DNA of 64,000 nt, taken from Candidatus Levyibacteriota bacterium. Its GTDB lineage: Bacteria; Patescibacteriota; Microgenomatia; Levybacterales; UBA12049. The notes under the pieces are model-generated. The model was not told the origin of the DNA. It made no database searches and saw only the letters and a list, made by a program, of their open reading frames with translations. Where the stretch lies: positions 121,661 to 185,660 of the forward strand of contig JAYRIM010000028.1 in NCBI GenBank assembly GCA_041906785.1. The letters are read 5' to 3'. The first letter of the stretch is position 1. Each line of letters begins with the position of its first letter. Below are positions 28,401-64,000 of the stretch, in pieces. The position numbers and the translations under genes were made by a program.

Positions 28401-28628
28401 GTTCCTATACGGCATGGAGACGCATGGGTATTTCCGGTTGGTTTAAAAGATGCTTTATGGTTCTCATTTAAGAATCCTCAATTATCTGTCAACACCACAA
28501 CATCAGCGAACGATGCATTGAATGCAGCTGCGCATTCTGTAAATCCGAAAGTCTTCGAATTTAATGAAGATGGAACACTTGTAGAGCTAACAAGAGTTAA
28601 AGGAAAAATTATAAAAATTAACCGCTAA
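25455..28628 (+). CDS. 1057-aa giant membrane protein: an O-antigen ligase/polymerase-like (Wzy_C) domain fused to a second polytopic GT-C-like domain and a C-terminal soluble domain
   Basis: FGSGYGSVSLAVDNNYLRMLGEIGLLGL is Wzy_C/WaaL-like; at least 20 TM helices in total; C-terminal ~130 aa hydrophilic. Confidence 0.5.
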   Translation: MKYFKWLKDNILFVITLFLLAFIPLYPKKPLLDIKNTWVYIRAEDFIVVLVMAFWIFLLIRKKITLRTPLTLPILFFWLAGAIATIHGVILIFPTIANVFPNVSFLSFLRHIEYMSLFFIAYSGMKHKRFLPIVITTLTITLLLVIGYGFGQKYLGFPAYLTMNEEFAKGIPIRLSALSRVPSTFAGHYDLAAYLVLIIPILASLIFGFRNWLIKISLLITIVLGFGLLFMTVSRVSFFVLFLALFIVLFFHKKRFVIFSIPIIAVLTFIFISLQPSLFDRFTSTVKDVDVLIDAKTGEALGHVKYLSAEQFKNKTIWQQDVRSKNEIAAIIGDEKDEVLEASPSALFPYENLTPEVPVFIATNISTGENLPQGTGYINLSLSPVTKKLGWFIYERQSNPEKSISEKVYALNGTFLIKRAAAYDLSFTTRFQGEWPNTIKAFKRNIFFGSGYGSVSLAVDNNYLRMLGEIGLLGLLSFIGIFVIIGIYIRKILPDVDSNLAKSFVIGFVAGVVGLFFNAFLIDVFEASKIAFSLWLLAGITVGLLDLYKKKDINLSQEFLHAITSPLAIIVYLITAVIVLYTPMISNYFIGDDFTWFRWADMGGNILTYFTQADGFFYRPGTKIYFYLMYSVFWLNQSVYHAVSLVLHCMIIIEFFLLAKKIFGRTLSASLAAFLFLIISGYFESIFWISSTGHLFSSVFILGSLLFYIVWEDNKKTLYFIASILSFICSLLFYELGIVTPLLILLYAAYKRETYNISFILKRIEYVFYIIPLIFYWLIRYAAQSHWLNGDYNYNIIKLPFNAIGNSIGYFSLTLFGPIVLPFYEKLRDFSKLHVGLTMIVVFSASVLVFFLYKTQRKKINKRDNSIFLFGFFFFVISLIPFLGLGNITSRYSYLASLGLIIILVLVLEKIYNLLSTSGKNIAFGSMVVVLMVFSLFHIMQIQQIHSDWYEAGQKVKRFFIVIDELYIDEWSREPLSLYFVNVPIRHGDAWVFPVGLKDALWFSFKNPQLSVNTTTSANDALNAAAHSVNPKVFEFNEDGTLVELTRVKGKIIKINR

Positions 28629-43258: not shown

Positions 43259-43304
43259 TCCGCACCAGTTGACTCGAGTTGAAGGCGTCAGTGAGTGTAG
43301 CTTC

Positions 43305-44351
43305 TTACTGCTGGGACAGCGCTTCCTGGTAGACCTCAGGCCGGTGGATGAGCAACTCCCGGCACGTACAGTTCGTGGGGATAGGAGCTGTCTCAAGCAG
43401 GAGAGCCTCGAATTCCAGAATCCGCCGCGGGAGCTGCTTGACGTAGAGGCTGTCGAGCGTCGTGTTCAGGCCGAACTTGGGGTCGGTTACATCCTGCCCT
43501 TCGCAGTCGTTCGCGACGATGCAATAGTAACCTTCGTCCATACCAAGATGCCTGCACAGGATTGGCGTAACGCTATCACCGTGGAGCATGGCGAAGGGGG
43601 ATCCTTCGCGCTCGGAGATGGTCTGCATCATGTGTCGCCAGACCATAGTTTCGCCTTCGCTCTCGAACGTGCCGCCTGTTGGACTCCGCAAGATTACGCG
43701 GACGTCGCTGGGGCGGTGAACCTTCGGGAAGAACTCGAGGTCCTCTGCCAGGTCTGCCATCCACCCGCTCAGGCTGACGCAGAAGGGATCCTTCATGCGT
43801 GCCAAGTTCGGGAGGACCCCGCCTATCCCAGTGCCGGGGAGATGCCCGGCCATGTTATCGTTCCGATAAAAGGACCATGGGAAGACGATGTCGCCGGGAC
43901 GAATCGCGTCCTGAAGGTTGGCTGGTGAGCGGGGGTCGTTGACCCCATGGGTACCACCGACGAAGAGAACACGAACGCCAGCCTTCCACAGAATCCAGAA
44001 GAGACGCCATTGTCCTTCATGGGGATGCGTGAATCGTTCACCCCGTACCCCGCCGTAGGACGGAATCCAGATGACGTCACGTCCGGATGAGGTGGTGAAC
44101 TGAGTAACCAGCGGGCCGAGGCCGTAAGGCGTGCGCACACGGGCGTTGAAGTTGAGTACCCAGCCCCTCGCCTGGCGGTCGGCGATGACCTGCTCAGGCG
44201 TGACGCCCCAGAGCGGCGAGCCAGTGATGCTCGCCACGGATGCTGACGGTCCATCATAGGCGAAGTTCAGAACAGCGGGATCTTTATATCCTCCCAACAT
44301 CGGTGCCTCCATAGATATGTTGCATGATGCGTGCCTCCACTGTGGAAACAA
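43305..44351 (-). CDS. MTAP/PNP-family nucleoside phosphorylase (high-GC island). True start probably an internal Met (~44312).
   Basis: LFWILWKAGVRVLFVGGTHGVNDP ... IRPGDIVFPWSFY ... CIVANDCEG parallels MTAP ([23 protein letters not shown] ... PGDIVIIDQFIDRT ... ATDYDCW). Confidence 0.45.
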   Translation of the reverse strand: MFPQWRHASCNISMEAPMLGGYKDPAVLNFAYDGPSASVASITGSPLWGVTPEQVIADRQARGWVLNFNARVRTPYGLGPLVTQFTTSSGRDVIWIPSYGGVRGERFTHPHEGQWRLFWILWKAGVRVLFVGGTHGVNDPRSPANLQDAIRPGDIVFPWSFYRNDNMAGHLPGTGIGGVLPNLARMKDPFCVSLSGWMADLAEDLEFFPKVHRPSDVRVILRSPTGGTFESEGETMVWRHMMQTISEREGSPFAMLHGDSVTPILCRHLGMDEGYYCIVANDCEGQDVTDPKFGLNTTLDSLYVKQLPRRILEFEALLLETAPIPTNCTCRELLIHRPEVYQEALSQQ

Positions 44352-45147
44352 CGCGCATGAAACCGAGTGACAGGACTGCGCTGGCGATTGCCAGGTCGAC
44401 GAGCAAGTCCATCCGATACCGTGTAGTGAAGGTGTACAACAACCACCCGAGGCCGCCGCCGGCTGTCAGCCATTCCACGACCACTGCTGAGAGGATTACC
44501 ACACTCGCCGACGTCTTCAAAGCTGCGAAGAGCATCGGCAGCGAATAGTAGATCCGTACATGGCGGAACGTGGCCCATGGCGTGATGCCTGGCAAGGTCT
44601 GGGTATAGTCCATCACGTCCGACTCCACTTGATGCAACCCTGTGAAGAAGTTGATCAAGGTGGGGAAGAACGTTGCCAACGACACGAGCGCGACTCTCAT
44701 CTTCCAGTTAGGGCCGAGGACGAGCATCAGCATCGGGATCAGAACGATAAACGGCACGCTCTTCACCCAGACTGATGTTCGGAGTACGACCGGTTTTAGC
44801 CATGGCACGAATACCATGACGATCGACAGCATGATCGCGATGCTGTTGCCGACCACGAACCCGGATAGAGCATCTAGCAGCGTTAGGCCGATGTTCTGGA
44901 TGATCCAGATACCGTTCGGAATCCGTAATGCCAGATCCTGTTCCCACAGGGCAACGATGACCTTATGGGGAGCAGGGAGTATGAACTGCACATAGTCGGG
45001 GGCGAAGTGAAGGTAGATGTAGACGAGTAGTATCAGCCCCCCGATGTGCAGGATTAGCCCAAGACGTTCGACGAACTGAGTAGCTCCGCGCTTGAGTAAC
45101 GAGAGCCAACCAGTTGGCTGAGGATGATGTTTCAATGCTACTCTCAT
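44284..45147 (-). CDS. ABC transporter permease (NitT/TauT / binding-protein-dependent family)
   Basis: 6 TM helices; conserved EAA-like region ...ALKTSASVVILSAVVVEWL; high GC. Confidence 0.7.
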   Translation of the reverse strand: MRVALKHHPQPTGWLSLLKRGATQFVERLGLILHIGGLILLVYIYLHFAPDYVQFILPAPHKVIVALWEQDLALRIPNGIWIIQNIGLTLLDALSGFVVGNSIAIMLSIVMVFVPWLKPVVLRTSVWVKSVPFIVLIPMLMLVLGPNWKMRVALVSLATFFPTLINFFTGLHQVESDVMDYTQTLPGITPWATFRHVRIYYSLPMLFAALKTSASVVILSAVVVEWLTAGGGLGWLLYTFTTRYRMDLLVDLAIASAVLSLGFMRVVSTVEARIMQHIYGGTDVGRI

Positions 45148-45159
45148 ACGTAGCCCTCC

Positions 45160-46239
45160 TTACTTCAGGTAGTCGAGTGTCATCAGCTCCTGGAGTGTGG
45201 GACGGCGGCGAATCACGTTGTTTGTCATGTAGAAGTCGAGTGCTTCCTCGATCCGCTTGCCGTCCATCCAGAGAAGACCGTTAGACTTGGTAGACTCGCT
45301 AGTCATCATCGGCGCCTGGAGTTGAATACGGCGCCTCAAGATTTGCTCGGTTTCCGAACCACCGAACGCGAGGGCGGTCTTGACGGTGAAGTCCTGGTCG
45401 TTGATCATGCGCTGCATGCCGTTGCGCAGGCCGCGCAAGAAGGCACGCATGACCTGCTTGCCTTCAGGGGTTTCGAGAAACGACCGCTTGGTGAACACGA
45501 TGTCCGCGTAGAACGGTACACCCCACTGGTTATAGCGGAGCGCCTTCCAGGGCAGGCCCTGCTGCTCGAGTGCGAGGGGTTGATTGACAACCCAGTATGA
45601 AGCGAAATCCACCGACTGCGTGAGCAAATCGGCGGGATTTTCGCCTCCGATGCGGACGATGGTGACGTCACGATCATTTACGCCGTTCTTGTGGAGAAGG
45701 GCGATGAGCTGCGCCTCGCTTTGGACACCGACACGCTTGCCGATCAGGTCCTTGGGCGTGAGCTCGCGCGCCCGCTGCTCTGGCGTCAGGTTTTTCTCCA
45801 GAATGACATATCCGAGAGGATGCTCCTGGAGAATCGCACCCGTCATTACGATGGGTACGTTTTCCGCGACCTGCGGCACGATGCCGTCCAGGCTGGCGGT
45901 AACACCGATCTCAGCCTCGCCGGACAGAACGTTGTTAAGAGCGGGAACTTGAGGCCCACCCTCCTTGAACGTGACGGCGAGTCCTTCTTGTTCGAAGTAT
46001 CCGCCTTTGACAGCATTGTACAGGGCGCAGGACTCGCAGTTATGTCGCCAGGGAAGCTGGACGACGAGCGGGCGAAGGGGTTTGGGAGTAGCGGTAGCAG
46101 CAACGGCGACAGTCGGTGCGGCTTTCGGAGCCGCCGTAGTGACGGCCTTAGGTGCGGCCGCCTGAGGAGCGGGCTGCTGGCAGCTGATGAGCAGGCCAGC
46201 AAGGACAAGCAGAACCAAGAGACGTGGAACACGCTGCAT
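45160..46239 (-). CDS. ABC transporter substrate-binding lipoprotein (NMT1/THI5-SsuA-like)
   Basis: MQRVPRLLVLLVLAGLLISC lipobox, then an Ala/Pro-rich linker and an SBP domain. The ORF track extends 25 codons upstream to 46314. Confidence 0.7.
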   Translation of the reverse strand: MQRVPRLLVLLVLAGLLISCQQPAPQAAAPKAVTTAAPKAAPTVAVAATATPKPLRPLVVQLPWRHNCESCALYNAVKGGYFEQEGLAVTFKEGGPQVPALNNVLSGEAEIGVTASLDGIVPQVAENVPIVMTGAILQEHPLGYVILEKNLTPEQRARELTPKDLIGKRVGVQSEAQLIALLHKNGVNDRDVTIVRIGGENPADLLTQSVDFASYWVVNQPLALEQQGLPWKALRYNQWGVPFYADIVFTKRSFLETPEGKQVMRAFLRGLRNGMQRMINDQDFTVKTALAFGGSETEQILRRRIQLQAPMMTSESTKSNGLLWMDGKRIEEALDFYMTNNVIRRRPTLQELMTLDYLK

Positions 46240-46397
46240 GGTAATCCTCCAGTGAACTGATGCTTTGAGTTGGTTGAGACATGGTAGACCACATTCAAAT
46301 AATGTGATCTCCACTGTTCCATACTTGTCTTTCCTAAGGACAAGTGAGAAATCTAAGGAACAGCAGAATGAAAAATGCCAAACATTTTAAAGGTTCC

Positions 46398-49337: not shown

Positions 49338-49422
49338 AAGGAGTCAAAAGAGACAAAGGAGACAAATGGGCCAAAGGAATCTAACTTCTGTCCCTTCTGG
49401 TTCTTTGGTCTCTTTTGGTACC
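49338..49422. repeat. hairpin repeat family 2, copy 2 (between the ftsL-like gene and ftsI, overlapping the annotated ftsI 5' end)
   Basis: AGTCAAAAGAGACAAAGGAGACAAATGGGCCAAAGGAATCTAACTTCTGTCCCTTCTGGTTCTTTGGTCTCTTTTGG. Confidence 0.55.
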
Positions 49423-51115
49423 TTTTATTATGACTTTTCGTTATAGAAGCTTATTGGGATTTTTCGCTTGTATTTTCTTCATTATATTTGCGCGGTTATT
49501 CTATTGGCAGGTTGTTCGTGCACAAGAATTAGCAGAACTTGGAGAGATGCAATATGGCCAATTTATAAAACAGATTCCTAAACGAGGAGAAATACGCACG
49601 AGTGATAACTTTCCTATTGCCGCGAATAAAATAAATTACCTTGTTTTTCTTAATCCGAAAACAGTCCCAGATGATGAGAAAGAAAAAATTTCTCCATTAC
49701 TCGCGCCTCTACTCGAAGTAGATCCAGCAAGTATTAGTGCGAAACTTATGATGAACAGGTATTGGGTAGCCTTAAAACCAAATGTGGAACATTCGGTAAA
49801 AGAACAGATTGAAAAGCTCAAGTTACAAGGAATAGGATTCGAAGAACAAACAGTTCGGTTTTATCCAGAGGCTTCATTAGCAGCCAAATTAATAGGATTT
49901 GTCGGGAAAGATGATGAAGGAAATAATAAAGGGTATTTCGGATTAGAAGGATATTATGATCTACAGCTTTCAGGAAAACCTGGTTTGGCTATGCAGATAA
50001 AGGACGCGTTGGGAAGACCGATATTGGCCAAAATGAATAACAGTTCTGCAAAAGTGGACGGTAGAAATATTATTCTCTATGTAGACCGGAGTGTGCAGTT
50101 TATCCTTGAAGAGGAATTACGGAAAGGCCTAGAAAAATATGGCGCTCAAGGTGCTATGGGTGTCATTATGGACCCGAAAACCGGTGGCATTTTAGGAATG
50201 AGTGCTTTTCCGTCTTTCGACCAGCGAAATTTCCAAGAATATTCAAGTGATTTATATTTAAATCCTATCATTTCCAACGCTTATGAGCCCGGATCGACCT
50301 TTAAGCCACTTGTCATGGCTGCAGGAATAGATAGTGGCGTTGTAAAACCTGAAACCCAATGTCCTATTTGTGATAAGCCTGTTGAAATAGGGGGGTACAC
50401 TATAAAAACCTGGAATAATGAATACCAACCCGGTATTACAATGGCAAACGTCATCCGAGATTCTGATAATACAGGAATGGTTTATGTCTCACAAAAACTG
50501 GGATTAAAGAAAATGTATTCTTATTTAGAAAAATATGGTATAGGGTCTTTAACAGGAGTAGATCTTCAAGGCGAGATGTCCCCTGATTTACGTTCCATAG
50601 ATTCTTGGTACCCTATAGATGTTGCGACTGCAAGTTTCGGACAGGGAATATCTGTTACAGCGATTGAATTAGTAAGTGCTTTTGCAAGCTTAGCAAATGA
50701 TGGAAAACGTATGCAGCCGCATGTAGTCTCTAGTGTCGAGACCCCGGAAGGGGAAATTATTCCAATAGCACCGAAAGAAGTGAATCAAACAGTTTCGCCT
50801 ACGACGACGAAAATAATGCGGGAAATTTTAGTTAATGCTGTGAAAAAAGGCGAGGCTAAATGGGCTGCTCCGAAGGGATACAGAATCGCGGGGAAAACTG
50901 GTACTGCACAGATTCCTATTGAAGGTCATTATGATTCAGAAAAAACCATTGCGTCTTTCATAGGATATGCTCCAGCAGATGATCCGAAGTTTGTAATGTT
51001 GATAGTCTATGATCGTCCGACAAGTTCTATTTATGGATCGGAGACTGCAGCGCCGACGTTTTTTACTATTGCCACGAAATTATTAGCTTACTATAAAATT
51101 CCGCCATCAGAATAA
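49415..51115 (+). CDS. ftsI: peptidoglycan D,D-transpeptidase FtsI (class B PBP)
   Basis: STFKPLVMAAG (SxxK), SDN, KTGTAQ motifs; N-terminal TM. True start possibly ATG ~49430. Confidence 0.85.
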   Translation: MVPFIMTFRYRSLLGFFACIFFIIFARLFYWQVVRAQELAELGEMQYGQFIKQIPKRGEIRTSDNFPIAANKINYLVFLNPKTVPDDEKEKISPLLAPLLEVDPASISAKLMMNRYWVALKPNVEHSVKEQIEKLKLQGIGFEEQTVRFYPEASLAAKLIGFVGKDDEGNNKGYFGLEGYYDLQLSGKPGLAMQIKDALGRPILAKMNNSSAKVDGRNIILYVDRSVQFILEEELRKGLEKYGAQGAMGVIMDPKTGGILGMSAFPSFDQRNFQEYSSDLYLNPIISNAYEPGSTFKPLVMAAGIDSGVVKPETQCPICDKPVEIGGYTIKTWNNEYQPGITMANVIRDSDNTGMVYVSQKLGLKKMYSYLEKYGIGSLTGVDLQGEMSPDLRSIDSWYPIDVATASFGQGISVTAIELVSAFASLANDGKRMQPHVVSSVETPEGEIIPIAPKEVNQTVSPTTTKIMREILVNAVKKGEAKWAAPKGYRIAGKTGTAQIPIEGHYDSEKTIASFIGYAPADDPKFVMLIVYDRPTSSIYGSETAAPTFFTIATKLLAYYKIPPSE

Positions 51116-52864: not shown

Positions 52865-54172
52865 ATGTGGCAATCACTGAAGAACACCTACCATCTTGCC
52901 CAGTCTTTTTTGGCGAACGTCTATTATGGATTTCCGGCAAAAAAACTGACTATTATCGGTGTGACCGGTACGAGTGGTAAAACGACAACTGCTTTAATGA
53001 TCTATTCGATGCTGCAAGCCGCAGGGTATAAAGTCTCTGTGTTAACGACTATTAAAGCTATAATCGCTGGAAAAGAGTATGATACAGGTTTTCATGTGAC
53101 GACACCTGATCCTCACGTTCTTCCTAAATATCTAAAACAAGCTGTAGATAATGGTGACACACATTTCGTCCTTGAAGTTTCTTCTCACGCTCTCGATCAG
53201 AACCGTGCTGCTTTTGTGCCTTTTAAGATTGGAGTTCTTACAACATTGGCACATGAGCATTTAGATTATCATAAAACTTTCATAAATTATGCTCGAGCGA
53301 AATTTAAGCTATTATTCGCATCAGAATGCTCCGTTTTGCCTAAGGGTTTATTTAATAATGCAGAAATTAGAGATTTACTGGATGATCTTACAAAAAAGAA
53401 AAAAATAAAAACATTTGGTCTGAATTCTGGAGAAGAAACACAAAAAAAATGGCATTTTAAACTGACAATGCCAGGTGAATATAGTTTACGTAATGCATTG
53501 GCTGCTGCAACTGTAGGAGATTACCTTGGGATAGATAAAAAAACGATCACTGAAGCGCTTGAGAATTTTTCAGCAATACCTGGAAGATTTGAAGAAATTC
53601 CAAACAGACGAGGTTTACGTATTATTATTGATTTCGCGCATAAACCAGACGCACTTGAGGCTGTTTTACATGTTGCACGATCTCTTGTGAAAGAGAAAGA
53701 AAAGGTGATTGTTTTATACGGATGTGCAAGTGAACGCGATGTATTAAAGCGGCCAATTATGGGGAAAATAAGCGGCCTCTTATCAGATGTGACCGTATTG
53801 ACAGATGAAGATCCACGAAGAGAAGATCCAATGAAAATAATTGATGAAATAGCACAGGGGTGTCTTGAAAGTGGTGCTAAGGAAGGTGTCATTCTGAGCG
53901 ATAGCGAAGAATCTAATGGCGATTTGTACAAAGTTGCAGGGGATCCTTCGTCCGATGGGAATCGGACTCAGGATGACAAACAACATATATTTTTTAAAAT
54001 TCCAAATAGAGAGGAAGCGATTGACTTTGCAATTAATACAATTGCAAGAAAAGGAGATATCATTCTACTTTGTGGAAAAGGACATGAGCAGTCGATGAAC
54101 TATAATGGCGTTGAGAAACCTTGGAGTGAACACAAAGCAGTAGAAAAAGCATTGAATAAAAAAGATTTATGA
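52865..54172 (+). CDS. murE: UDP-N-acetylmuramoyl-tripeptide synthetase MurE-like Mur ligase, with a ~30-aa in-frame palindromic-element insertion near the C-terminus
   Basis: GVTGTSGKTTT P-loop; C-terminal CGKGHEQ; sits within the dcw cluster. Confidence 0.8.
   Translation: MWQSLKNTYHLAQSFLANVYYGFPAKKLTIIGVTGTSGKTTTALMIYSMLQAAGYKVSVLTTIKAIIAGKEYDTGFHVTTPDPHVLPKYLKQAVDNGDTHFVLEVSSHALDQNRAAFVPFKIGVLTTLAHEHLDYHKTFINYARAKFKLLFASECSVLPKGLFNNAEIRDLLDDLTKKKKIKTFGLNSGEETQKKWHFKLTMPGEYSLRNALAAATVGDYLGIDKKTITEALENFSAIPGRFEEIPNRRGLRIIIDFAHKPDALEAVLHVARSLVKEKEKVIVLYGCASERDVLKRPIMGKISGLLSDVTVLTDEDPRREDPMKIIDEIAQGCLESGAKEGVILSDSEESNGDLYKVAGDPSSDGNRTQDDKQHIFFKIPNREEAIDFAINTIARKGDIILLCGKGHEQSMNYNGVEKPWSEHKAVEKALNKKDL
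53888..53976. mobile_element. palindromic element copy inserted in frame inside murE
   Basis: GTCATTCTGAGCGATAGCGAAGAATCT ... GGATCCTTCGTCCGATGGGAATCGGACTCAGGATGAC. Encodes the extra loop VILSDSEESNGDLYKVAGDPSSDGNRTQDD, which is absent from canonical MurE. Confidence 0.6.
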
Positions 54173-55596
54173 ATAAAGATTTAAGACTGAAAAAGATTCA
54201 TTTCGTAGGAATTAAAGGCGTAGGAATGACTCCCCTCGCTATTATCGCAAAAGAAGCAGGAATAAACGTAACAGGTTCCGACGTGAATGAAGTTTTTATT
54301 ACGGACGAGCCTTTAAAAAATGCGGGAATAAAATCATTCACTGAATTTTCTCCTGATCATATAACAGATGATATCAATCTCGTTATCACTACTGGTGCTC
54401 ATGGAGGATTTCAAAATCCAGAAGTCTTGAAGGCTAAAGAAATGAATATTCCTGTACTAACACAAGGGGAAGCTGTCGGCGTTTTTATGGATGGAACAAT
54501 TCTTGGACGGAAAACACTGGGGATCTCTGTAGCTGGAACACATGGTAAGACAACAACAACAGCCATGATCGCTACTGTTTTAAAAAAATCAAAACAGGAT
54601 CCTTCTTATGTTATCGGGACAAGTACTATACCTTCTTTAGGTAATGCAGGTCATTATGGAAAAGGAAACTATTTTGTGGCTGAAGCAGATGAATATGCTA
54701 CCGAGCCGATGTCTGATAGAAGAGCGAAATTTTTTTGGCAACATCCGAATATTGCTGTTATCACTAATATCGAGCTTGATCATCCTGATATCTATGAGAA
54801 TGTTAGCGTTATGCGGAATACTTTTTTACAGTTTGCACAACAAATTCCAACTGAAGGAGTACTCGTCGCGTGTGGGGATGATCATGAAGTCCGCACATTA
54901 TTAAAAGAATATACTGGTCGTGTTATTACCTATGGCTTTTCCCCTGCGAATGATTTTATTATAGAACATACTTCTTTTTCAGCTCAGTCGACTTTTTTTA
55001 GAGTAAAAGCGTATGGGACCAGTCTAGGAGAGTTCTTTCTTCATGTATCGGGAGAACATAATTGTTTGAATGCGCTTGCATCAATTATCGTGGGATTTGA
55101 AGTTGGGTTGTCGTTGGATGTAATCTCAAAATCATTAGCTGAGTTTAAAGGTACTAAAAGAAGGCTAGAGTTTATCCGAACCCTAGAAACCGGAGCCTTG
55201 CTTTATGATGACTATGGGCATCATCCAACTGAAATTCAGAAAACGCTTGCAGGGCTTCGATCAGTGTACCCAAAAAAGAAAATTACTTGTATTTTCCAGC
55301 CTCATACATATTCACGCACAAAAGTCCTTTTTGAGGAGTTTTCTCGGGCCTTTCAAGAAGCAGACGAGGTCATAATAATTGATATTTACCCTTCTATGCG
55401 GGAACAGCCAGATTCGAGTGTCTCTTCAAAATTACTAGTTGAATCCATTAAAAAACATCATCGGTCAGCTCTATTCCTCCCAAAACTTCATGATGTGGTA
55501 AAATATATCGATGAAAAACGACCGGGGGAAGGTACGGTTGTCGTCACAATGGGTGCAGGCGATATTTATAAGCTAAATGAGTTGATGACAATCTGA
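54169..55596 (+). CDS. murC: UDP-N-acetylmuramate--L-alanine ligase
   Basis: IHFVGIKGVGMTPLAIIAKEAGINVTGSD N-terminus and GTHGKTTTT P-loop. Confidence 0.85.
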   Translation: MNKDLRLKKIHFVGIKGVGMTPLAIIAKEAGINVTGSDVNEVFITDEPLKNAGIKSFTEFSPDHITDDINLVITTGAHGGFQNPEVLKAKEMNIPVLTQGEAVGVFMDGTILGRKTLGISVAGTHGKTTTTAMIATVLKKSKQDPSYVIGTSTIPSLGNAGHYGKGNYFVAEADEYATEPMSDRRAKFFWQHPNIAVITNIELDHPDIYENVSVMRNTFLQFAQQIPTEGVLVACGDDHEVRTLLKEYTGRVITYGFSPANDFIIEHTSFSAQSTFFRVKAYGTSLGEFFLHVSGEHNCLNALASIIVGFEVGLSLDVISKSLAEFKGTKRRLEFIRTLETGALLYDDYGHHPTEIQKTLAGLRSVYPKKKITCIFQPHTYSRTKVLFEEFSRAFQEADEVIIIDIYPSMREQPDSSVSSKLLVESIKKHHRSALFLPKLHDVVKYIDEKRPGEGTVVVTMGAGDIYKLNELMTI

Positions 55597-55620: not shown

Positions 55621-56952
55621 ATGGAGAAATTTGTTATCAAAGGTGGTAATACATTACAGGGTACTGTAAAAATTTCAGGAGCTAAAAACGCTGCATTAAA
55701 AGCTCTCGTTGCTGCATGTTTAACAGACGAGACTGTCACACTTCATAATGTTCCTCATATTGCTGATATTTTCGTCATGATCGATATTATGAAAAACCTA
55801 GGTGCTGAGGTTGTGCTTCATGATCATAGTTTATCGATTACCATGAAAAAGTTTAACCATTTTTCTATCCCGCTGGATAAAGCGGCACTTGCGCGTACAT
55901 CAGCCATGTTTATCGCGCCATTGCTTGCACGCACAAAGGAAGCAATTATTCCAAATCCAGGTGGCTGCCGTCTTGGAGCACGACCAATTGACCGAACAGT
56001 AGAAGGAATAGAGAAAATGAATACAGAAATTACGTATCACAGCGAAGATGGATATTTTCATGCTAAAACTACGGGTTTAAAAGGTATTACATACCGATTT
56101 GCAAAAAGTACACATACAGGTACAGAGACAATGATTCTTGCTGCAGTGTTGGCTAAAGGAAAAACAGTTTTAGAGAATGCAGCAGAAGAGCCTGAAATAG
56201 ATGATGTGATCAATTTACTAAATGCAATGGGAGGAAAGGTGAAACGAAATGGAAAAAGACAAATAACTATTGAAGGCGTTGAGAAACTTCATGGAGCTGA
56301 CTTTACCATAAGTCCTGATAGGATAGAAGCTGTAACATTTGCTATCTGTGCCTACATTACTGGTGGAGATATCTTCGTGAAAGATGCACATAAAACACAC
56401 ATAAAAGCGTTTCTTGAGAGATTAGATCAGATCGGAGCACGTTATGAAATAAAAGAAGATGGTATTAGATTCTTTACAAACGGTATATTAAAAGCTGTTG
56501 ACGTGACAACTGATATTCACCCAGGTTTTTTAAATGATTGGCAAGCACCATGGGCGGTATTAATGACGCAAGCTGAAGGAGTGTCAACAATTCATGAGAC
56601 AGTATTCGAAAATAAACTTGGCTATGTGAAAGATTTAAAAAAAATGGGTGCAAAAGTACAACTATTTAATCCTCCAGTATCTAATAAAGAGGAGGTTTAT
56701 AATTTTAATTTGGAAGATGATCGGCCTGAATATTTTCATGCAGTAAAAATTACCGGTCCGGCGAAATTACATAACGCGGTTATGACGACACTGGATATTC
56801 GTGCGGGCGCAGCAATAGTTTTGGCTGCTTTAGCAGCAAAAGGTACAAGCATTATTTATGGTGTCGAAAAACTGGATCGTGGATATGAACGTTTTGAAGA
56901 ACGTTTAACATCACTCGGTGCAAATATAAAAAGGGTAAAGGAGGTAATATGA
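55621..56952 (+). CDS. murA: UDP-N-acetylglucosamine 1-carboxyvinyltransferase
   Basis: FVIKGGNTLQGTVKISGAKNAALKALVAA ... EPSP-synthase-like fold. Confidence 0.9.
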   Translation: MEKFVIKGGNTLQGTVKISGAKNAALKALVAACLTDETVTLHNVPHIADIFVMIDIMKNLGAEVVLHDHSLSITMKKFNHFSIPLDKAALARTSAMFIAPLLARTKEAIIPNPGGCRLGARPIDRTVEGIEKMNTEITYHSEDGYFHAKTTGLKGITYRFAKSTHTGTETMILAAVLAKGKTVLENAAEEPEIDDVINLLNAMGGKVKRNGKRQITIEGVEKLHGADFTISPDRIEAVTFAICAYITGGDIFVKDAHKTHIKAFLERLDQIGARYEIKEDGIRFFTNGILKAVDVTTDIHPGFLNDWQAPWAVLMTQAEGVSTIHETVFENKLGYVKDLKKMGAKVQLFNPPVSNKEEVYNFNLEDDRPEYFHAVKITGPAKLHNAVMTTLDIRAGAAIVLAALAAKGTSIIYGVEKLDRGYERFEERLTSLGANIKRVKEVI

Positions 56953-57704
56953 AAAAGATAGGCGCAATTATTTTAGCGGGTGGCAAAGGCACACGAATGA
57001 AAATGAAAACGACAAATAAAGTTACGATGAAACTTGGGGAAAAACCTATGGTGAAACATATCGTTGAGTTTATGCAAGGATTAGGAATAGATACGATTGT
57101 CGTTGTTGTCGGCTTCGCGAAAGAGTCAGTCATGGATGCATTAAAAGGTAAGGACGTCATCTTTGCAGAACAAAAAAAGCGTCTAGGTACTGGACATGCT
57201 ATCGTTTGTGCATTACGCACATTACCTAAAGATATTACCGATGTATTAGTTGTCTATGGAGATGATGCAGTATTATATGCAGAAAAAAATATTCCTACAA
57301 TTAAAAAATTATTTGAAGTGCATGACGAAAGAAATGACGCTGTGACTTTTTTAACTATAGAACAACCGAATCCATTTGGTTTAGGCAGGATTATTCGAGA
57401 TAAAGAAGGAAAAGTACAGGCCATTATTGAAGAAAAGGATGCTACAGAAGAGCAACGAAAAATTACTGAAATAAATCCGGGATGTTTTCTTTTCTCAGTT
57501 TCTTTTCTTAATAAATATCTTTCAAAAATAAAGAAAAGTCCAATAACAGGGGAGTATTACATTAATAGTTTTATAGATCTTGCGATTGCGCATGGAGAGC
57601 TAGTGAAGACAGTTCAAGGAGGATATATGGCTTGGCGAGGAGTAAACACGCATGACGAACTGCACCAAGCAGAGCAGTTGTTTACCAATGTTCGTTCTGC
57701 TTAA
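56949..57704 (+). CDS. sugar-phosphate nucleotidyltransferase (GlmU N-terminal-domain-like, stand-alone)
   Basis: GAIILAGGKGTRM ... YGDDAVL motifs. Confidence 0.75.
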   Translation: MKKIGAIILAGGKGTRMKMKTTNKVTMKLGEKPMVKHIVEFMQGLGIDTIVVVVGFAKESVMDALKGKDVIFAEQKKRLGTGHAIVCALRTLPKDITDVLVVYGDDAVLYAEKNIPTIKKLFEVHDERNDAVTFLTIEQPNPFGLGRIIRDKEGKVQAIIEEKDATEEQRKITEINPGCFLFSVSFLNKYLSKIKKSPITGEYYINSFIDLAIAHGELVKTVQGGYMAWRGVNTHDELHQAEQLFTNVRSA

Positions 57705-57709
57705 CATCT

Positions 57710-58348
57710 ATGGAGCAATATTCTCATAATACTTTTTTCGATATTTCAGAATTTCCTTATAAAGGCGTTTTTGAAAATGTCTACTCTGTCTGGGAAGCGA
57801 TAGGAAGATTAAAATTTTATATAGATGAACTCTTCAGTAGTAAGATAATTCAGGCTAATTATCAGAAAGCTCCTTTAGTATTTCTAGGGAAGAATGTCGT
57901 GATAGACGAAGGAATAAAGATAGAAGGTCCGGCTATCATAGGAGATAACAGTGTCATTAGGCATGGAGCATTGCTGCGAGCGTATTGTTTACTAGGCAAT
58001 AATGTCATCATCGGACATGGATGTGAAATAAAACATAGCATTTTTTTAAATAATGCTTCTGCTGCACACCTGAATTATGTTGGTGATAGTATTATCGGAA
58101 ATAACGTAAATATTGCAGGTGGTGCTATTACTGCAAACTTTCGACTTGATAAACAGAAAGTTAGAATCAAACATGGTACTAAAATCCTTGATACTCAGTT
58201 AGAAAAGTTAGGTGCTGTTATAGGAGATGGTTCAAATATAGGCGTAAATGCTGTTTTGAATCCAGGAACACTACTTGGAAAAAATACCATCGTATATCCA
58301 TTAACTTCAGTAAGAGGTGTACACGACAATAACGCAATTATAAAATGA
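57710..58348 (+). CDS. left-handed beta-helix acetyltransferase (GlmU C-terminal-domain-like, stand-alone)
   Basis: Hexapeptide repeats (IGDNSVIRHGA ... IGHGCEI ... IGNNVNIAGGAI). Confidence 0.6.
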   Translation: MEQYSHNTFFDISEFPYKGVFENVYSVWEAIGRLKFYIDELFSSKIIQANYQKAPLVFLGKNVVIDEGIKIEGPAIIGDNSVIRHGALLRAYCLLGNNVIIGHGCEIKHSIFLNNASAAHLNYVGDSIIGNNVNIAGGAITANFRLDKQKVRIKHGTKILDTQLEKLGAVIGDGSNIGVNAVLNPGTLLGKNTIVYPLTSVRGVHDNNAIIK

Positions 58349-58832: not shown

Positions 58833-60611
58833 ATGTGCGGAATATTTGGATATATCGGTACTAAAAAAGATGCACCTATGATGGTATTTGAAGGTTTAAA
58901 ACTTCTTGAATATCGTGGCTATGATTCCTGGGGGATTGCTACGAAAAATAGCAGTGGTGAATTAAAAGTTGAGAAATACACGGGTAAAATTGCTGAAAAT
59001 GAGAAAAACATTCAGATTGTAAAGCTTCCATCAAACATGGCGATTGGTCATACTCGTTGGGCAACCCATGGTGGAGTAACAGTGACAAACGCTCATCCTC
59101 ATTTCGACTGCAATAAACAATTAGCTCTTATCCATAATGGTATTATCGAAAATTATGTTGAGCTTCGCGATGAATTACTCGAAAAAGGACACAAATTTAT
59201 TTCAGAAACAGATACTGAAGTTGCGGTCCATTTGATTGAAGAAAATATAAAAAATGAAGGTTTCGCATCCGCGGTTCGAGATAGTTTTAACAGAATGAAA
59301 GGGTTAAATGCAATCGTAGTAATGAACGCTGCATCCCAAGAAATTATTACAGCGAAAAATGGTTCACCAATCGTCATTGGGAAGGACAGCACTGGATTAT
59401 ATATAGCATCTGACGCATCAGGAATTATAAAACACACACGAGATGTACTTTTTCTCGAGGATAATCAAATGGCGATTTTAGGAAAAACATTAAAAGTAAT
59501 TAAACTTCCGGAAGGTGAACCTATTACTCCTGAATTCCGAACTATAGAGTGGAAATTTGAAGAAAGTACTTTAGGAGACTATCCACATTATTTGTTAAAA
59601 GAAATACATGAACAACCACGTGTTTTGCGAAATATAGCGCTTTCATATGCTGATGAAACGAAACGGTTTGCCAATTTAATAGAAAAAGCGTTCGGTACAT
59701 TTATGTTAGGTTGTGGTACAGCTTCATACGCAGCGTTAAGTGGTACGTATCTTTTTTCGAAAATTGCTAAAAAACATGTTAATTTTGCTGTCGCGTCAGA
59801 ATTTAATTATTTGGAAGATTATCTAACCTCTGAAAGTCTCCTTATTCCAATATCTCAGAGTGGTGAAACAATTGATGTTGTGGAATGTGTAGGTAATGCA
59901 AAAAAACATGGTGCTAGAATTGCAGCGATAGTTAACGTTCTCGGTTCCACATTATATCGTCAGGCAGATAGTAGTGTTTTACTTGGTGCAGGTCCTGAGC
60001 GAGCCGTAATAGCTACAAAAAGCTTTATTGCAATGATTTCCGTGCTTCTTCTTACAGCCTATACATTAGCTGATAAACAAAAAGAAGGCATGAAACTTCT
60101 CGAACAAACAGCAGATGACATAGATGCAATATTAAAACCTTCGTATGTCGAGCAGGTTGTAAAACTTGCTGAAAATTTGAAAAATAAAGATCATGTTTTT
60201 ATCATAGGCCGAGGACTTTCATATGCAACATCACTTGAGGGTGCTTTAAAACTGAAGGAGACATGTTATATCCATGCTGAAGGTTTCGCTGGTGGGGAAT
60301 TAAAACATGGTGTTATAGCATTAATTGAACCTGGAACACCATGTATAGTTTTCGCACCCGATGATGAAACGTATGATGCAATAATTTCAAATGCTCAAGA
60401 AGTGAAAGCCCGTGGTGGATATATTATTGGTATTGGTCCTAAAAAGCATATCGTTTTTGATACATTCTTGCAGACAGCAGATGCTAAAGAAGCGACAATG
60501 ATTCCCCAAGTAGTTATCGCACAGCTATTAGCATATCACTTAGCATTAAAAAAAGGAATTAAAGATCCTGATAAACCGCGTAACCTTGCTAAGAGTGTTA
60601 CTGTGAAATAA
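58833..60611 (+). CDS. glmS: glutamine--fructose-6-phosphate aminotransferase
   Basis: MCGIFGYIG N-terminal nucleophile; two SIS domains; C-terminal ...KSVTVK. Confidence 0.9.
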   Translation: MCGIFGYIGTKKDAPMMVFEGLKLLEYRGYDSWGIATKNSSGELKVEKYTGKIAENEKNIQIVKLPSNMAIGHTRWATHGGVTVTNAHPHFDCNKQLALIHNGIIENYVELRDELLEKGHKFISETDTEVAVHLIEENIKNEGFASAVRDSFNRMKGLNAIVVMNAASQEIITAKNGSPIVIGKDSTGLYIASDASGIIKHTRDVLFLEDNQMAILGKTLKVIKLPEGEPITPEFRTIEWKFEESTLGDYPHYLLKEIHEQPRVLRNIALSYADETKRFANLIEKAFGTFMLGCGTASYAALSGTYLFSKIAKKHVNFAVASEFNYLEDYLTSESLLIPISQSGETIDVVECVGNAKKHGARIAAIVNVLGSTLYRQADSSVLLGAGPERAVIATKSFIAMISVLLLTAYTLADKQKEGMKLLEQTADDIDAILKPSYVEQVVKLAENLKNKDHVFIIGRGLSYATSLEGALKLKETCYIHAEGFAGGELKHGVIALIEPGTPCIVFAPDDETYDAIISNAQEVKARGGYIIGIGPKKHIVFDTFLQTADAKEATMIPQVVIAQLLAYHLALKKGIKDPDKPRNLAKSVTVK

Positions 60612-60645: not shown

Positions 60646-62307
60646 TTGCTAACATTATTCGATAATCCTGCCACTACGTCCCTGCCTTTTTCTATGAATA
60701 TTCTTTTCGTGTTAACAACATGCTTTTTTTATATTTGGATCATTCGTAATATATCTTTTTGGTTGTTTCACCTGCAAGAAAACGAATATCGCGGATATGC
60801 TTTATTTCAAAAAAAGTATTTCTTTAATAAAAACCTCGTTATATTATTATTATTGCAAGCTCTAGGAATAGCTGGATATATACTGTCTATCTTTATTGAC
60901 TCAGTTTCCCAAATAAGTCATATAATCATTTTCTCGGTATATCTATTTCAAGGCACAATTCTCTTTAGAGAAATCGTTTCACATCAATTTTTGATACCTA
61001 AAATAACGAAAAAATTTTTATTCCTTTTTTTACCTACTTTTTGCATTCTATACATTTTATTTTCTATACCACTTTTAGATAAATTTGTCTGGCTAATTGT
61101 TCTAGATCGGTTAACACTGCCTATTATCTTGTTTTTTGTTTTCAGCTATTCCTTTCCCATGGAAGTTTATAACGATATTATTTTGGAACGTGTGAGTAAA
61201 AAAAGAAAAACATTTAAACAAACGAAAATTATATGCATAGCTGGTGATGAATTAAAAAATCTTATTGCTTATTTTTTAGGTGAAATAGTTGCTAAATCCT
61301 ATGAAGTCATCCTGACGAAAGGCTCTCCTTATCTTCTTGAAGGTATATCAGAAGTTATAAACAAAGAAATTACAGATAATAAAACCGCTGTAATAATCCC
61401 CATTGAAGGGAATAACCGTGAAGATCTCAGCATTATTGTACAGACTTTAGGACCTGATATCGGAATCTATACTGATGTAGTGGGATTTCCGCTAAAAGGA
61501 ATAGAAGAAAAAGCCTATGTGCAGAAAATTAGTGAATTTTTTTTGCAAAATACATACTCCATACAGTTTCTTTCGTTAACTGGTAAGTACGCAGAAAAAT
61601 GTATAGATCTTATCATTAAAAAAAATGTAGATAAAAATATTCATACTCTTCGTTTAAAAAGTTCGGAGCCAAACTTAGCCATCGAAGATACTTCGAATAT
61701 GTATTTATATGTGAACGAAATGAATAAGCAGGGTGCAAGTTTTACTCTTAGATACAAGCAGAAAATATATACGTTAAAAACATCTATGAAAGGGGAACAA
61801 ACAATCTGGGCTTTATCGACAGCTGTATATATAGCTGATTACCTTGGCATTCCCTCTATAGATATCGAAGAAAAAGTTTCTGAGATAAAAGTTCCTGAAG
61901 GGTATATGTCCCATCATGCTTTTCTAAAAAGTCAGATTATTGATGCATCTGCATTTTCTAGTACATATATATTGGCAATTCTTCGGTATCTACATTTTTT
62001 TACAGGGAAAAAACTTATTATTCTGTCAGACGAAGGATTAAATAACAAAATAGTTCGTGAGGTTTTATTCGAGTTAAAAAATAGTGCTCCTGGAGAGTAC
62101 ACTTTTTTAGCGAATGATGAGATATATAAAAAATTGATTCGTCATTTTTCACCATTATCACCTATACGTTTAATACTATACTCCAGAAACGAACAGGTAA
62201 TTCGTCTGCTGAAACATTATCTAAAAGGAAAAGAAGATATTGCTGCATTTTTGGGTAATGCATCTAAATCTTTAATAGAAAATATTCTCAGAGAGCTGGA
62301 AAGTTAG
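60646..62307 (+). CDS. MurF-like Mur-ligase homolog with a degenerate P-loop, fused to a ~170-aa N-terminal 5-TM domain
   Basis: By eye it aligns block by block to MurF: KIICIAGDELKNLI vs KVVAITGSSGKTSV; AVIIPIEGNNREDL vs AVIELGANHQGEI; GFPLKGIEEKAYVQKISEFF vs AAHLEGFGSLAGVAKAKGEIF. It lies between the glmS end and mraY, where murF is expected. Confidence 0.45.
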   Translation: MLTLFDNPATTSLPFSMNILFVLTTCFFYIWIIRNISFWLFHLQENEYRGYALFQKKYFFNKNLVILLLLQALGIAGYILSIFIDSVSQISHIIIFSVYLFQGTILFREIVSHQFLIPKITKKFLFLFLPTFCILYILFSIPLLDKFVWLIVLDRLTLPIILFFVFSYSFPMEVYNDIILERVSKKRKTFKQTKIICIAGDELKNLIAYFLGEIVAKSYEVILTKGSPYLLEGISEVINKEITDNKTAVIIPIEGNNREDLSIIVQTLGPDIGIYTDVVGFPLKGIEEKAYVQKISEFFLQNTYSIQFLSLTGKYAEKCIDLIIKKNVDKNIHTLRLKSSEPNLAIEDTSNMYLYVNEMNKQGASFTLRYKQKIYTLKTSMKGEQTIWALSTAVYIADYLGIPSIDIEEKVSEIKVPEGYMSHHAFLKSQIIDASAFSSTYILAILRYLHFFTGKKLIILSDEGLNNKIVREVLFELKNSAPGEYTFLANDEIYKKLIRHFSPLSPIRLILYSRNEQVIRLLKHYLKGKEDIAAFLGNASKSLIENILRELES

Positions 62308-62355: not shown

Positions 62356-63360
62356 ATGGCATCTTTATTAGGTTTGACCATAATGGCCTTTTTTATTACT
62401 ATAATACTTTTGGTTCCTTTCATAGACTTTCTCTACGCTGTAAAGCTGAAAAGACGAACACAGAAAACTCGTGATCCTTTTGATAATAGAACTCCCTTAT
62501 TTGATAAATTCAATGAATGGAAAGTAGGTACTCCTTTCGGAGGAGGCTTGTTAATAATCATTATTGTACTTGTTCTATCGTTATGGGCATATGGGATGCT
62601 GGATATAAATGTAAATCCATGGGAACTTTTCGTGCTCATTTTTTCACTTGTTGGCTTTGGTTCTTTAGGATTATATGATGATTTTAAGAAGCTGGTGAGT
62701 GGATCGAACGAGTTTTTTGGTTTGCGATTACGGTATAAATTTATTATTCAATGGATTTTAGCATTCATAATCGCAAGCGTCTTCTATTTAAAACTCGGTT
62801 ATGATTTTATTTATCTTTATGGGAGTGTTATGAATATCGGAGCATTTTTTATACCTATAGCGGCTTTCGTTATCGTAGCTTTTGTAAATGCGTTTAATAT
62901 TACTGATGGCTTAGATGGGCTCGCTTCAGGATTATTATTAATCTGTTTGTTAGCTCTTTTGGCTATAACAGCACAGATTCTGGATCAGACGCTCGGTATT
63001 TTTATCGCTGTGCTTGTAGGCAGTGTAGGAGCATTCTTGTACTTTAATACATATAAAGCGAGGTTATGGCTGGGAGATGTGGGATCACTTTCTTTAGGTG
63101 CAGCACTTGCTGTTATGGGACTACTTACAGGAAAAACACTTGCGCTTGGAATTATCGGCGGTGTATTTGTCGCTGAAGTAGCTTCTTCTTTTTTACAATT
63201 AACGAGTAAAAAATTCTTCAACAGGAAAGTACTACCAGCAGCTCCTTTACATCTATGGCTTTTAAAACGAGGATGGGAAGAACCAAAAATCGTAATGCGT
63301 GCATGGATTGTTGGGTTTTTCCTCGCTATTTTGGGATTGTATTTAGCTTTGGTACGTTAA
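62356..63360 (+). CDS. mraY: phospho-N-acetylmuramoyl-pentapeptide transferase
   Basis: NAFNITDGLDGLASG and a ~10-TM topology. Confidence 0.9.
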   Translation: MASLLGLTIMAFFITIILLVPFIDFLYAVKLKRRTQKTRDPFDNRTPLFDKFNEWKVGTPFGGGLLIIIIVLVLSLWAYGMLDINVNPWELFVLIFSLVGFGSLGLYDDFKKLVSGSNEFFGLRLRYKFIIQWILAFIIASVFYLKLGYDFIYLYGSVMNIGAFFIPIAAFVIVAFVNAFNITDGLDGLASGLLLICLLALLAITAQILDQTLGIFIAVLVGSVGAFLYFNTYKARLWLGDVGSLSLGAALAVMGLLTGKTLALGIIGGVFVAEVASSFLQLTSKKFFNRKVLPAAPLHLWLLKRGWEEPKIVMRAWIVGFFLAILGLYLALVR

Positions 63361-63406: not shown

Positions 63407-64000
63407 TATGAAACGTTATGATTTTATACTTTTTTCATCTATTATTTTCCTCACATTATTCGGAATATTAATGATTTATAATGCTTCGTCTGTTATTGCA
63501 TTCAGAGATTTCGGAAATAAATATCATTATTTCACTGAACAGCTGACATGGATCATTCTAGGCTATTCAGCAATGATTTTTATGTCATATATAGATTATC
63601 ATTTGTATTATAAACTTGCTGTTCCTTTACTTATGATTGCCATTATTTTTCTGCTAGCTGTCTTTATACCTGGAATTGGCATATATGCTCTTGGAGCGCA
63701 TCGATGGATAAATTTACATTTTTTCGTTCTTCAACCAGCAGAATTTATTAAACTTACACTTGCTATCTATCTTTCTGCTTGGTTTTCGCATAAAGAACGT
63801 GAACGGTTTTTAGCTTTCTGTTTACTAATAGGCACAGTATTACTTCTTGTTATGTTACAGCCAGATATGGGAACCGCTTCAGTTATACTTTTCGAGGCAT
63901 TAGTTGTTTATTACTTGTCCGGTGGAAATATTATGCAGTTTGTATTTTTAATCCCTGTCTTGGCTATCGCTGGCTTTTTACTCATTAAAATCGCTCCATA
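63407..64000 (+). CDS. ftsW: 3'-partial SEDS-family FtsW/RodA (runs off the window end)
   Basis: ATG ~63407; IFLTLFGILMIYNASS ... LQPDMGTA motifs; no stop before nt 64000. Confidence 0.75.

Follow-up and report, generated by a model that had tools for sequence, protein, structure and literature searches.

We analysed a 64,000-nucleotide stretch of DNA (hereafter the window) from a Candidatus Levyibacteriota bacterium (contig JAYRIM010000028.1), focusing on a gene near its end that encodes a membrane-anchored MurF-like protein. The gene sits in the murF slot of the division and cell wall (dcw) cluster, between glmS (58833-60611, forward strand) and mraY (62356-63360, forward strand), as correctly noted in the original prediction made from the letters of the window; glmS is syntenic in all related loci. 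The maximal open reading frame (ORF), at 60646-62307 on the forward strand, begins with TTG, ends with a stop codon at 62305-62307 and comprises 553 amino acids (aa). This ORF exists as first described, but its start does not appear to be the right one. All homologues align from residue 17 of the 553-aa ORF (M-N/D-I-L-F...), which favours the ATG at 60694, 16 codons downstream, as the probable true start of a 537-aa protein, and residues are numbered here from this Met17.

The protein falls into three parts, all on the forward strand. An N-terminal membrane domain (residues 1-177, 60694-61224) with four transmembrane (TM) helices and a fifth helix spanning residues 130-177 is followed by a domain of the Mur-ligase central, adenosine triphosphate (ATP)-binding type at 61225-61887, whose fold is recognised by Foldseek, and by a Mur-ligase C-terminal domain at 61888-62304, supported by the model and Foldseek. 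By sequence the relationship to Mur ligases is weak. The window protein has no match in Pfam and no sequence match in the PDB, and the NCBIfam murF, CfbE and MurE profiles match it only at E values of about 1e-4. On the murF profile, TIGR01143, it scores 21 bits (E=1.3e-4), below the curated cut-off of 288.6 bits; for calibration, a canonical MurF control (P0153) scores 462 bits over profile positions 1-418. Full-length alignments of the window protein were obtained with P0002, carried by assembly GCA_964512695.1 (E=1.6e-80), and P0001 (E=3.8e-39). P0001 has the same N-terminal membrane region, is 26% identical to the window protein over 96% of its length, and itself matches TIGR01143 with 230 bits, starting at profile position 69.

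An AlphaFold2 model of the window protein, built on 30 relatives, has a mean predicted local distance difference test score (pLDDT) of 82 and a predicted template modelling score of 0.77. In it, five TM helices and a long connecting helix precede a central domain of Rossmann-like fold, and the C-terminal domain is of the alpha/beta type. When this model was compared with the PDB using Foldseek, 173 chains were found at E<=1e-3, and the best nine matches were all MurF (4qf5, E=4e-19; 1gg4, 4cvk, 3zl8), followed in the ranking by MurE, MurT and MurC. The best 50 of the 173 chains are all Mur ligases (MurF, MurE, MurC), MurT or PAP11. On the evidence of the predicted model, the window protein has the fold of a Mur ligase. 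The claim of MurF-type homology, first made from an alignment by eye, is made firm by the bridging homology of P0001 together with the model and its Foldseek matches, and the structure prediction proposed at that time as a check came out in its favour.

An exhaustive HMMER search over 1.84 billion representative proteins found relatives in 318 representative clusters at E<=1e-3, 107 of them at E<=1e-10, mostly 520-550 aa long and aligned from residue 1. A word-indexed search of a 5.8-billion-protein index returned one to three relatives only, as low-complexity membrane sequence swamped the candidates. The combination of a membrane domain with the MurF central and C-terminal domains is thus a recurrent architecture rather than a one-off fusion, in which the TM domain replaces the usual N-terminal domain. 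The five-TM domain had been rightly recognised at the outset, but what looked like a fusion peculiar to this protein is the normal state of its family.

An alignment of the 150 best hits with the window protein and P0001 was then scored at 14 catalytic positions. The 112 full-length members divide into 71 with all motifs (class 1), 31 in which essentially all motifs have been lost together (class 2, which includes the window protein) and 10 intermediates. The class-1 motifs are GSYGKTSTKE, EMGA, NxQH, K-Y/F-E-L, FNGxN, DDTFNANP and MIELG, and class-1 members score 219-230 bits on TIGR01143, matching from profile position 66-69 or so. Databases annotate them only as MurF or as hypothetical; class-2 members are labelled 'hypothetical protein' or, misleadingly for one dead member in IMG, 'UDP-N-acetylmuramyl pentapeptide synthase'.

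The P-loop segment of the window protein (61234-61269, forward strand) reads CIAGDELKNLIA where active relatives have GVTGSYGKSSTKE. The pattern GxxGK[ST], present in active relatives as TGSYGKS, is not found in the window protein (AGDELKN), where G184, the first Gly, and K188, the aligned Lys, are all that is left of it. A degenerate P-loop without the second Gly and the Ser/Thr had indeed been predicted; the damage is, however, not limited to it. At the aligned columns the Mg2+-binding Glu of EMG and the His of NxxQH are both replaced by Pro and the conserved Lys of K-Y/F-E-L by Ser, and the NxDD motif is also replaced. In the C-terminal domain DDxxNANP (DDxYNANP) has become DASAFSS and MxELG has become SDEGL. 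The window protein keeps two of the seven catalytic motif positions scored in the central domain and one of seven in the C-terminal domain. More widely, of the 42 positions in the ligase domains with a conservation of 85% or more in class 1, 32 differ, and the 10 that are kept are Gly, Pro, hydrophobic residues and two Lys. The N-terminal domain that binds the uridine diphosphate (UDP) substrate is absent as well, the TIGR01143 match beginning at position 69 and residues 1-177 consisting of the five TM helices and a linker.

Only 19% of the class-2 members still have the class-1 P-loop Lys, and they share no alternative motif. Since the residues that replace the catalytic ones are not conserved among the 31 class-2 members, there is no sign of an alternative active site. 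Judged from these motifs, the window protein lacks what a working enzyme would need, as a Mur ligase or as MurF, and it is predicted to be unable to bind ATP or to ligate.

The TM helices of the model span residues 2-29, 46-65, 71-95, 106-124 and 130 onwards, the last (130-177) leaving the membrane into the linker, with a predicted topology that places the N-terminus outside and the ligase-like part in the cytoplasm. Conservation of this domain does not follow that of the rest of the protein. Its mean pairwise identity is 26% in class 1 and 28% in class 2, whereas the central domain falls from 40% in class 1 to 19% in class 2 and the C-terminal domain from 32% to 20%. The best-conserved membrane-domain motifs (61069-61176, forward strand) are common to both classes. 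Two of them lie at the ends of TM5, P126-L-x-D-x-F/Y-x-W133...D138-R139 at the outer one and F154-P155-x-E157-x-x-x-D161 at the cytoplasmic one, and TM1 contributes the further shared residues F12, W15, R18 and W23, these common motifs being strongest in class 2. Within class 2, W133 and P155 are invariant, and P126, E157 and D161 are at least 90% conserved. The window protein has the shared motifs F12, W23, P126, W133, D138-R139 and F154-P155-x-E157-x-x-x-D161. We infer that the role of the TM1 and TM5 motifs does not depend on catalysis.

Cytoplasmic loop 1 behaves differently. In class 1 it carries a specific motif, W-Q-x-K-E-Y-R-x-D-R-x-x-x-H, whose K30, R36 and H40 are 82-100% conserved in the class-1 members near class 2 and 70-94% in those further away. 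About 6% of class-2 members keep the class-1 Lys30 and 29% keep R36, a decay that parallels that of the ligase motifs. The degenerate counterpart in the window lies at 60781-60828 on the forward strand (NEYRGYALFQKKYFFN); within it the loop reads LQENEYRGYALFQK, in which Q, E, Y and the first R are kept and K30, D35, R36 and H40 are lost, so that the class-1 signature is absent. This pattern points to basic loop 1 being part of the catalytic apparatus in the active enzymes, in which it may take the place of the UDP-binding N-terminal domain that they lack.

Besides the full-length members there are some 25 representatives with a length of only 390-408 aa (short forms), in which membrane and central domains end exactly at the boundary with the C-terminal domain (for example P0007, P0011, P0014, P0019, P0020, P0021 and P0029, and the loci L030, 819-2036, and L033, 3847-5043). 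Most of these are degenerate too, some with a near-intact P-loop (P0007, P0014, P0020). In L030 and L027 the next gene after the short form is mraY, which leaves no separate gene for the C-terminal domain. A neighbour-joining tree from membrane-domain columns only, which is weakly resolved, places 28 of the 31 class-2 sequences in one clade of 32, with a small second group elsewhere. The tree suggests one or a few ancient inactivations and then a long persistence.

Using GlmS of the window as a probe, we recovered 23 loci from GTDB species genomes. Most of the related ones are labelled Candidatus Levybacteria or Levyibacteriota, others Curtissbacteria or Roizmanbacteria, all of them in the Microgenomates (Patescibacteria), with GlmS identities of 53-68%. 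Over these loci and the contigs of other family members, the gene order is conserved as mraZ, mraW, ftsI, YdjM, murE, murC, murA, glmU-like, glmS, X, mraY, ftsW, murG, ftsA and ftsZ, where X is the slot of the MurF-like gene. This slot holds an intact class-1 gene in L001, L006, L007, L019 (on the 918 kb contig PLZJ01000002.1) and L023, with a perfect GSYGKS/T P-loop in some Levybacteria positional orthologues, and a dead class-2 gene in the window, L002/L003, L004, L005 and the contigs of P0004 and P0015. It is intermediate in L029 (P0006), where a GGVGKT P-loop is kept and little else; it is short and degenerate in L027, L030 and L033; it is empty in L010 and L017, where glmS leads straight to mraY, and it is filled by unrelated genes in L015. 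As the same slot of a conserved gene order holds the intact forms, the window gene is the positional orthologue of an active membrane-anchored MurF and not an extra paralogue.

The ligase-like part of the gene (367 codons, 32% GC) contains no in-frame stop, compared with 11-36 stops in the other five frames and averages of 17-30 in shuffled sequences, and the ligase parts of L002, L004 and L005 have the same stop-free frame. Taken from these alignments and the model together, catalytic residues have been lost while the predicted fold and the open frame have been retained over a long evolutionary time, as expected for a pseudoenzyme, and the dead form does not look like a decaying pseudogene.

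The window contains three Mur-family genes, namely murE (52865-54172, without its N-terminal domain) and murC (54169-55596), both on the forward strand, and the MurF-like gene; no second murF and no ddl, alr, murB or murD was found within its 64 kb. No further Mur ligase lies within 10 kb of the gene in the class-2, intermediate or gene-absent loci examined, and the 10 kb around it in the related class-2 and intermediate loci examined have no ddl either. The dcw cluster is without murD in every locus, class-1 loci included, which shows that Mur ligase genes are dispersed in this lineage and makes an unlinked murF plausible. The class B penicillin-binding protein (PBP) gene ftsI (49415-51115, forward strand) has its STFK, SDN and KTG transpeptidase motifs intact, and across the loci the STFK/STLK, SDN and KTG motifs are kept whatever the state of the slot. 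By PBP chemistry, the FtsI transpeptidase needs donors ending in D-alanyl-D-alanine (D-Ala-D-Ala). The intact motifs therefore suggest, by an indirect argument, that D-Ala-D-Ala (pentapeptide) stems are still made.

The window MurE is itself short, its TIGR01085 match starting at profile position 69 and its Pfam matches covering the middle and C-terminal domains only. murE is likewise short (392-435 aa across the lineage) in L005, L029 and the contigs of P0004 and P0015. In these genomes, then, MurE and MurF are both without the usual UDP-substrate-binding domain 1.

Several other features of the related loci were noted. In the intact-MurF loci L006 (11782-16355), L007 (11768-16305) and L023 (4635-9325) an alpha/beta hydrolase gene lies just upstream of the MurF gene, and a DegT-type aminotransferase gene and a FemAB-family (peptidoglycan branch peptide) gene lie downstream; all three are missing from the dead-gene loci. 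A co-loss of murB with the dead state was considered and rejected, as the class-1 loci L001 and L006 also have no murB; the gene is found between murC and murA only in some loci (L007, L019). mraY is followed directly by ftsW in L002, L005, L007, L010, L017, L019, L029, L031 and L032, and in the window the N-terminus of ftsW begins at 63408 and runs off the end. In L027 (6651-9497, Levyibacteriota JACROF010000004.1) glmS without its last 20 or so codons continues in frame into a short degenerate MurF-like gene without its first 11 or so codons, which could be a genuine GlmS fusion or else the product of a deletion or of faulty assembly. Four loci (L006, L010, L013, L021) are titled 'uncultured Gammaproteobacteria bacterium' (TPA) despite a Levybacteria-like dcw/glmS region, an unchanged gene order and GlmS identities of 60-68% to the window, which looks like mislabelling of the source records.

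Elsewhere in the window, two separate genes encode the parts of GlmU, a nucleotidyltransferase (56949-57704) and a hexapeptide acetyltransferase (57710-58348); in some relatives the second GlmU slot holds a GNAT-type acetyltransferase (L001, 4256-4690; L005, 6951-7400). A sharp-edged GC-rich block at 43300-46300 (54-62% GC inside sequence of 30-38% GC) carries on the minus strand an NMT1/THI5-like substrate-binding protein (45160-46314) and an ABC permease (44284-45147), with no Pfam match at 43.3-44.3 kb. It looks like a recent foreign insertion or an assembly chimera, because in the related P0015 contig the tRNA synthetase gene is followed almost directly by mraZ. An rRNA operon was ruled out, as an Rfam scan of the window found no RNA genes. 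Positions 1-36400 hold a large surface-glycan cluster with about ten glycosyltransferases (GT2, GT4), epimerases/dehydratases, a sulfotransferase, a split transketolase, PMT-like mannosyltransferases and a Bac_transf initiating transferase, together with large ORFs without a Pfam match (66-1526, 6672-8123, 17440-19131, 19135-21048 and 25455-28628).

From our analysis it is highly probable that the window protein is a retained, non-catalytic derivative of MurF. The explanation we favour overall, with reasonable though not strong confidence, is that it is a MurF descendant which persists because it has a structural function at the membrane, beside MraY. We propose that the class-1 enzyme would add D-Ala-D-Ala to the tripeptide of UDP-N-acetylmuramic acid (UDP-MurNAc) at the membrane, beside MraY. 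In the window lineage the P-loop is gone, as are the Glu and His that bind Mg, the conserved Lys, the C-terminal contacts to D-Ala-D-Ala and ATP and most of the loop motif, while a full-length, folded and membrane-inserted polypeptide would still be made under relaxed but real purifying selection. The membrane domain would carry most of the structural role, and the protein could, for instance, be a partner or adaptor for the machinery of MraY, FtsW and MurG, whose genes lie immediately downstream. The D-Ala-D-Ala-adding activity would either come from an unlinked gene or no longer be needed. The early suggestion of a pseudoenzyme or scaffold is the reading that fits the evidence best; a specific scaffold role is a tentative proposal and somewhat less likely true than false.

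Several results weigh against a retained structural role. Between the window and L029, the closest genome by its neighbouring genes (MurE 610 bits, GlmS 989 bits), the neighbours are 47-77% identical (59-77% without the HAD hydrolase) with non-synonymous divergence (dN) of 0.19-0.48, whereas the MurF-like gene is only 25% identical with a dN of 0.89, a rate about 3-5 times that of the core neighbours (dN 0.19-0.32). In the membrane domain the ratio of dN to synonymous divergence (dS) is 0.18, in the ligase domains about 0.5 and in the neighbours 0.07-0.18, but synonymous sites are saturated and these values are nominal and indicative only. GTDB species genomes and JGI metagenomes yielded no close sequence pair for a clean dN/dS estimate; the ten class-2 representatives checked were all singleton clusters at 90%, and a subclade probe added four more loci, none of them close. 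Sister genomes have truncated the slot gene to about 400 aa (L027, L030, L033) or deleted it (L010, L017), and any residual structural role would accordingly be accessory rather than essential, and dispensable in some lineages. Nothing found points directly to a scaffold function or to a partner, and the inactivity is itself read from the sequence. Even so, in the ligase domains of the same pair the proportion of changed non-synonymous sites (pN, 0.55-0.56) is below that of synonymous sites (pS, 0.69-0.71, saturated). Taken together, the comparisons indicate a MurF-like protein that is kept open, folded and membrane-inserted under a constraint that is strongly relaxed but not absent.

The fast rate, the graded series of intact, dead, truncated and absent genes in related genomes, and the loss of all catalytic motifs without conserved replacements would also fit a functionless relic that decays slowly towards deletion. 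We consider this unlikely, given a frame open through 537 codons in a 32% GC genome in which other frames have 11-36 stops per 367 codons, the same open frame in at least three other deeply diverged lineages and in 31 full-length representative clusters, a TM domain as conserved as in the active enzymes with invariant W133 and P155, pN below pS even in the ligase domains, and a confident AlphaFold2 fold. A protein that has acquired a new function in binding a peptidoglycan intermediate (UDP-MurNAc-peptide or a lipid-linked form), as a sensor, MraY chaperone or regulator, would account for the retention of the Mur-ligase fold and of the whole three-part architecture, rather than of the membrane domain only, in 31 lineages, and for the position immediately upstream of mraY. 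The ligase domains of class 2 have, however, no new conserved polar residues of their own; what is conserved in them, namely Gly, Pro and hydrophobic positions, is conserved in class 1 as well, and the C-terminal domain is dispensable in the short forms, which leaves this binding role improbable.

The original prediction had also allowed for a ligase with altered nucleotide handling, that is, an active D-Ala-D-Ala-adding enzyme of an unorthodox kind. K188 at the aligned P-loop Lys, the retained G184, the occupied murF slot and the lack of another murF nearby speak for it, but they are set against the replacement of the second Gly and Ser/Thr of the P-loop, of Glu, His, Lys, NxDD, DDxxNANP and MxELG, against a P-loop Lys kept in just 19% of class 2 with no alternative motif, and against a TIGR01143 score of 21 bits where active membrane-anchored MurF reach 219-230. 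With replacement residues that vary among the 31 degenerate members, the proposal is unsupported, and we regard it as very unlikely. Orthologues with an intact GKT had been named as a possible sign of a sequencing error, and such positional orthologues with a perfect GSYGKS/T P-loop do exist in some Levybacteria. An error of sequencing or assembly in a normal murF is nevertheless excluded. Of 42 conserved ligase positions 32 are changed, without any frameshift or stop, and the degenerate state recurs in 30 further independent sequences that come from different samples; the family data refute such an error.

A bolder extension of the non-catalytic reading, which we rate as rather improbable, is that a Levybacteria-like clade, whose members carry the dead gene, its short version or none, has no MurF activity at all, makes precursors without D-Ala-D-Ala addition by a Mur ligase, and uses the dead MurF as an adaptor that presents the precursor to MraY. 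If this were true, it would imply a tripeptide precursor, completion by a route other than Mur ligases, or peptides derived from a host. As a corollary, the membrane domain and basic loop of the active relatives would replace the UDP-binding domain and couple the last cytoplasmic step to MraY.

MurF is regarded as an essential, soluble enzyme of peptidoglycan-containing bacteria and is an antibiotic target. In the searchable literature we found no description of a membrane-anchored or inactive MurF, nor of either for MurF in Patescibacteria, and a broader survey of the candidate phyla radiation gave nothing relevant. A sizeable MurF family of Patescibacteria in which the substrate-binding N-terminal domain has been swapped for a five-helix anchor, and a deep sub-family that has lost all catalytic residues and persists as a folded membrane protein, both appear to be undescribed. 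The anchor would place the last cytoplasmic precursor step at the membrane beside MraY. The series of active, dead, truncated and absent genes provides a natural set in which to see how reduced symbiotic bacteria rewire or abandon D-Ala-D-Ala addition, and its interest would rise sharply if these lineages proved to be without any active MurF and Ddl. The IMG name given to a dead member is also a caution for automated metabolic reconstruction.

The closest known system is MurF itself (TIGR01143; 1gg4, 4qf5, 4cvk, 3zl8), with which the window protein shares the slot directly upstream of mraY in the dcw cluster and, in its model, the fold of the central and C-terminal domains (E 4e-19 to 2e-16, TM-score 0.60-0.66, target-normalised). 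It differs in having a five-TM domain in place of the N-terminal domain and in its lost catalytic motifs, and is only 12-16% identical to the solved MurF proteins. The class-1 membrane-anchored MurF (P0001; L006, L007, L019, L023) have the same length, five-TM motifs, domain order and glmS-mraY slot, but at about 19-25% overall identity they keep both the catalytic motifs and the WQxKEYRxDRxxxH loop that the window protein has lost. MurT of the MurT/GatD lipid II amidotransferase (9sq9, 6h5e; Foldseek ranks 11-15) likewise has a Mur-ligase fold without the canonical N-terminal domain and acts on a membrane-associated peptidoglycan precursor; unlike the window protein, which has no ATP site and no GatD-like partner nearby, it has a working ATP site and is active together with GatD. 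The nearest conceptual precedent is the angiosperm MurE-like protein PAP11, whose function has diverged from that of bacterial MurE and which serves the plastid RNA polymerase as a peripheral structural subunit (PMC12681378). Its chain in the PDB (8r6s_Q) ranks 20th in the Foldseek search, and it is a Mur-ligase fold turned structural subunit. PAP11 is eukaryotic, soluble, derived from MurE and part of a transcription complex, whereas the window protein is bacterial, membrane-anchored and derived from MurF, and would add a bacterial case of a Mur ligase turned pseudoenzyme.

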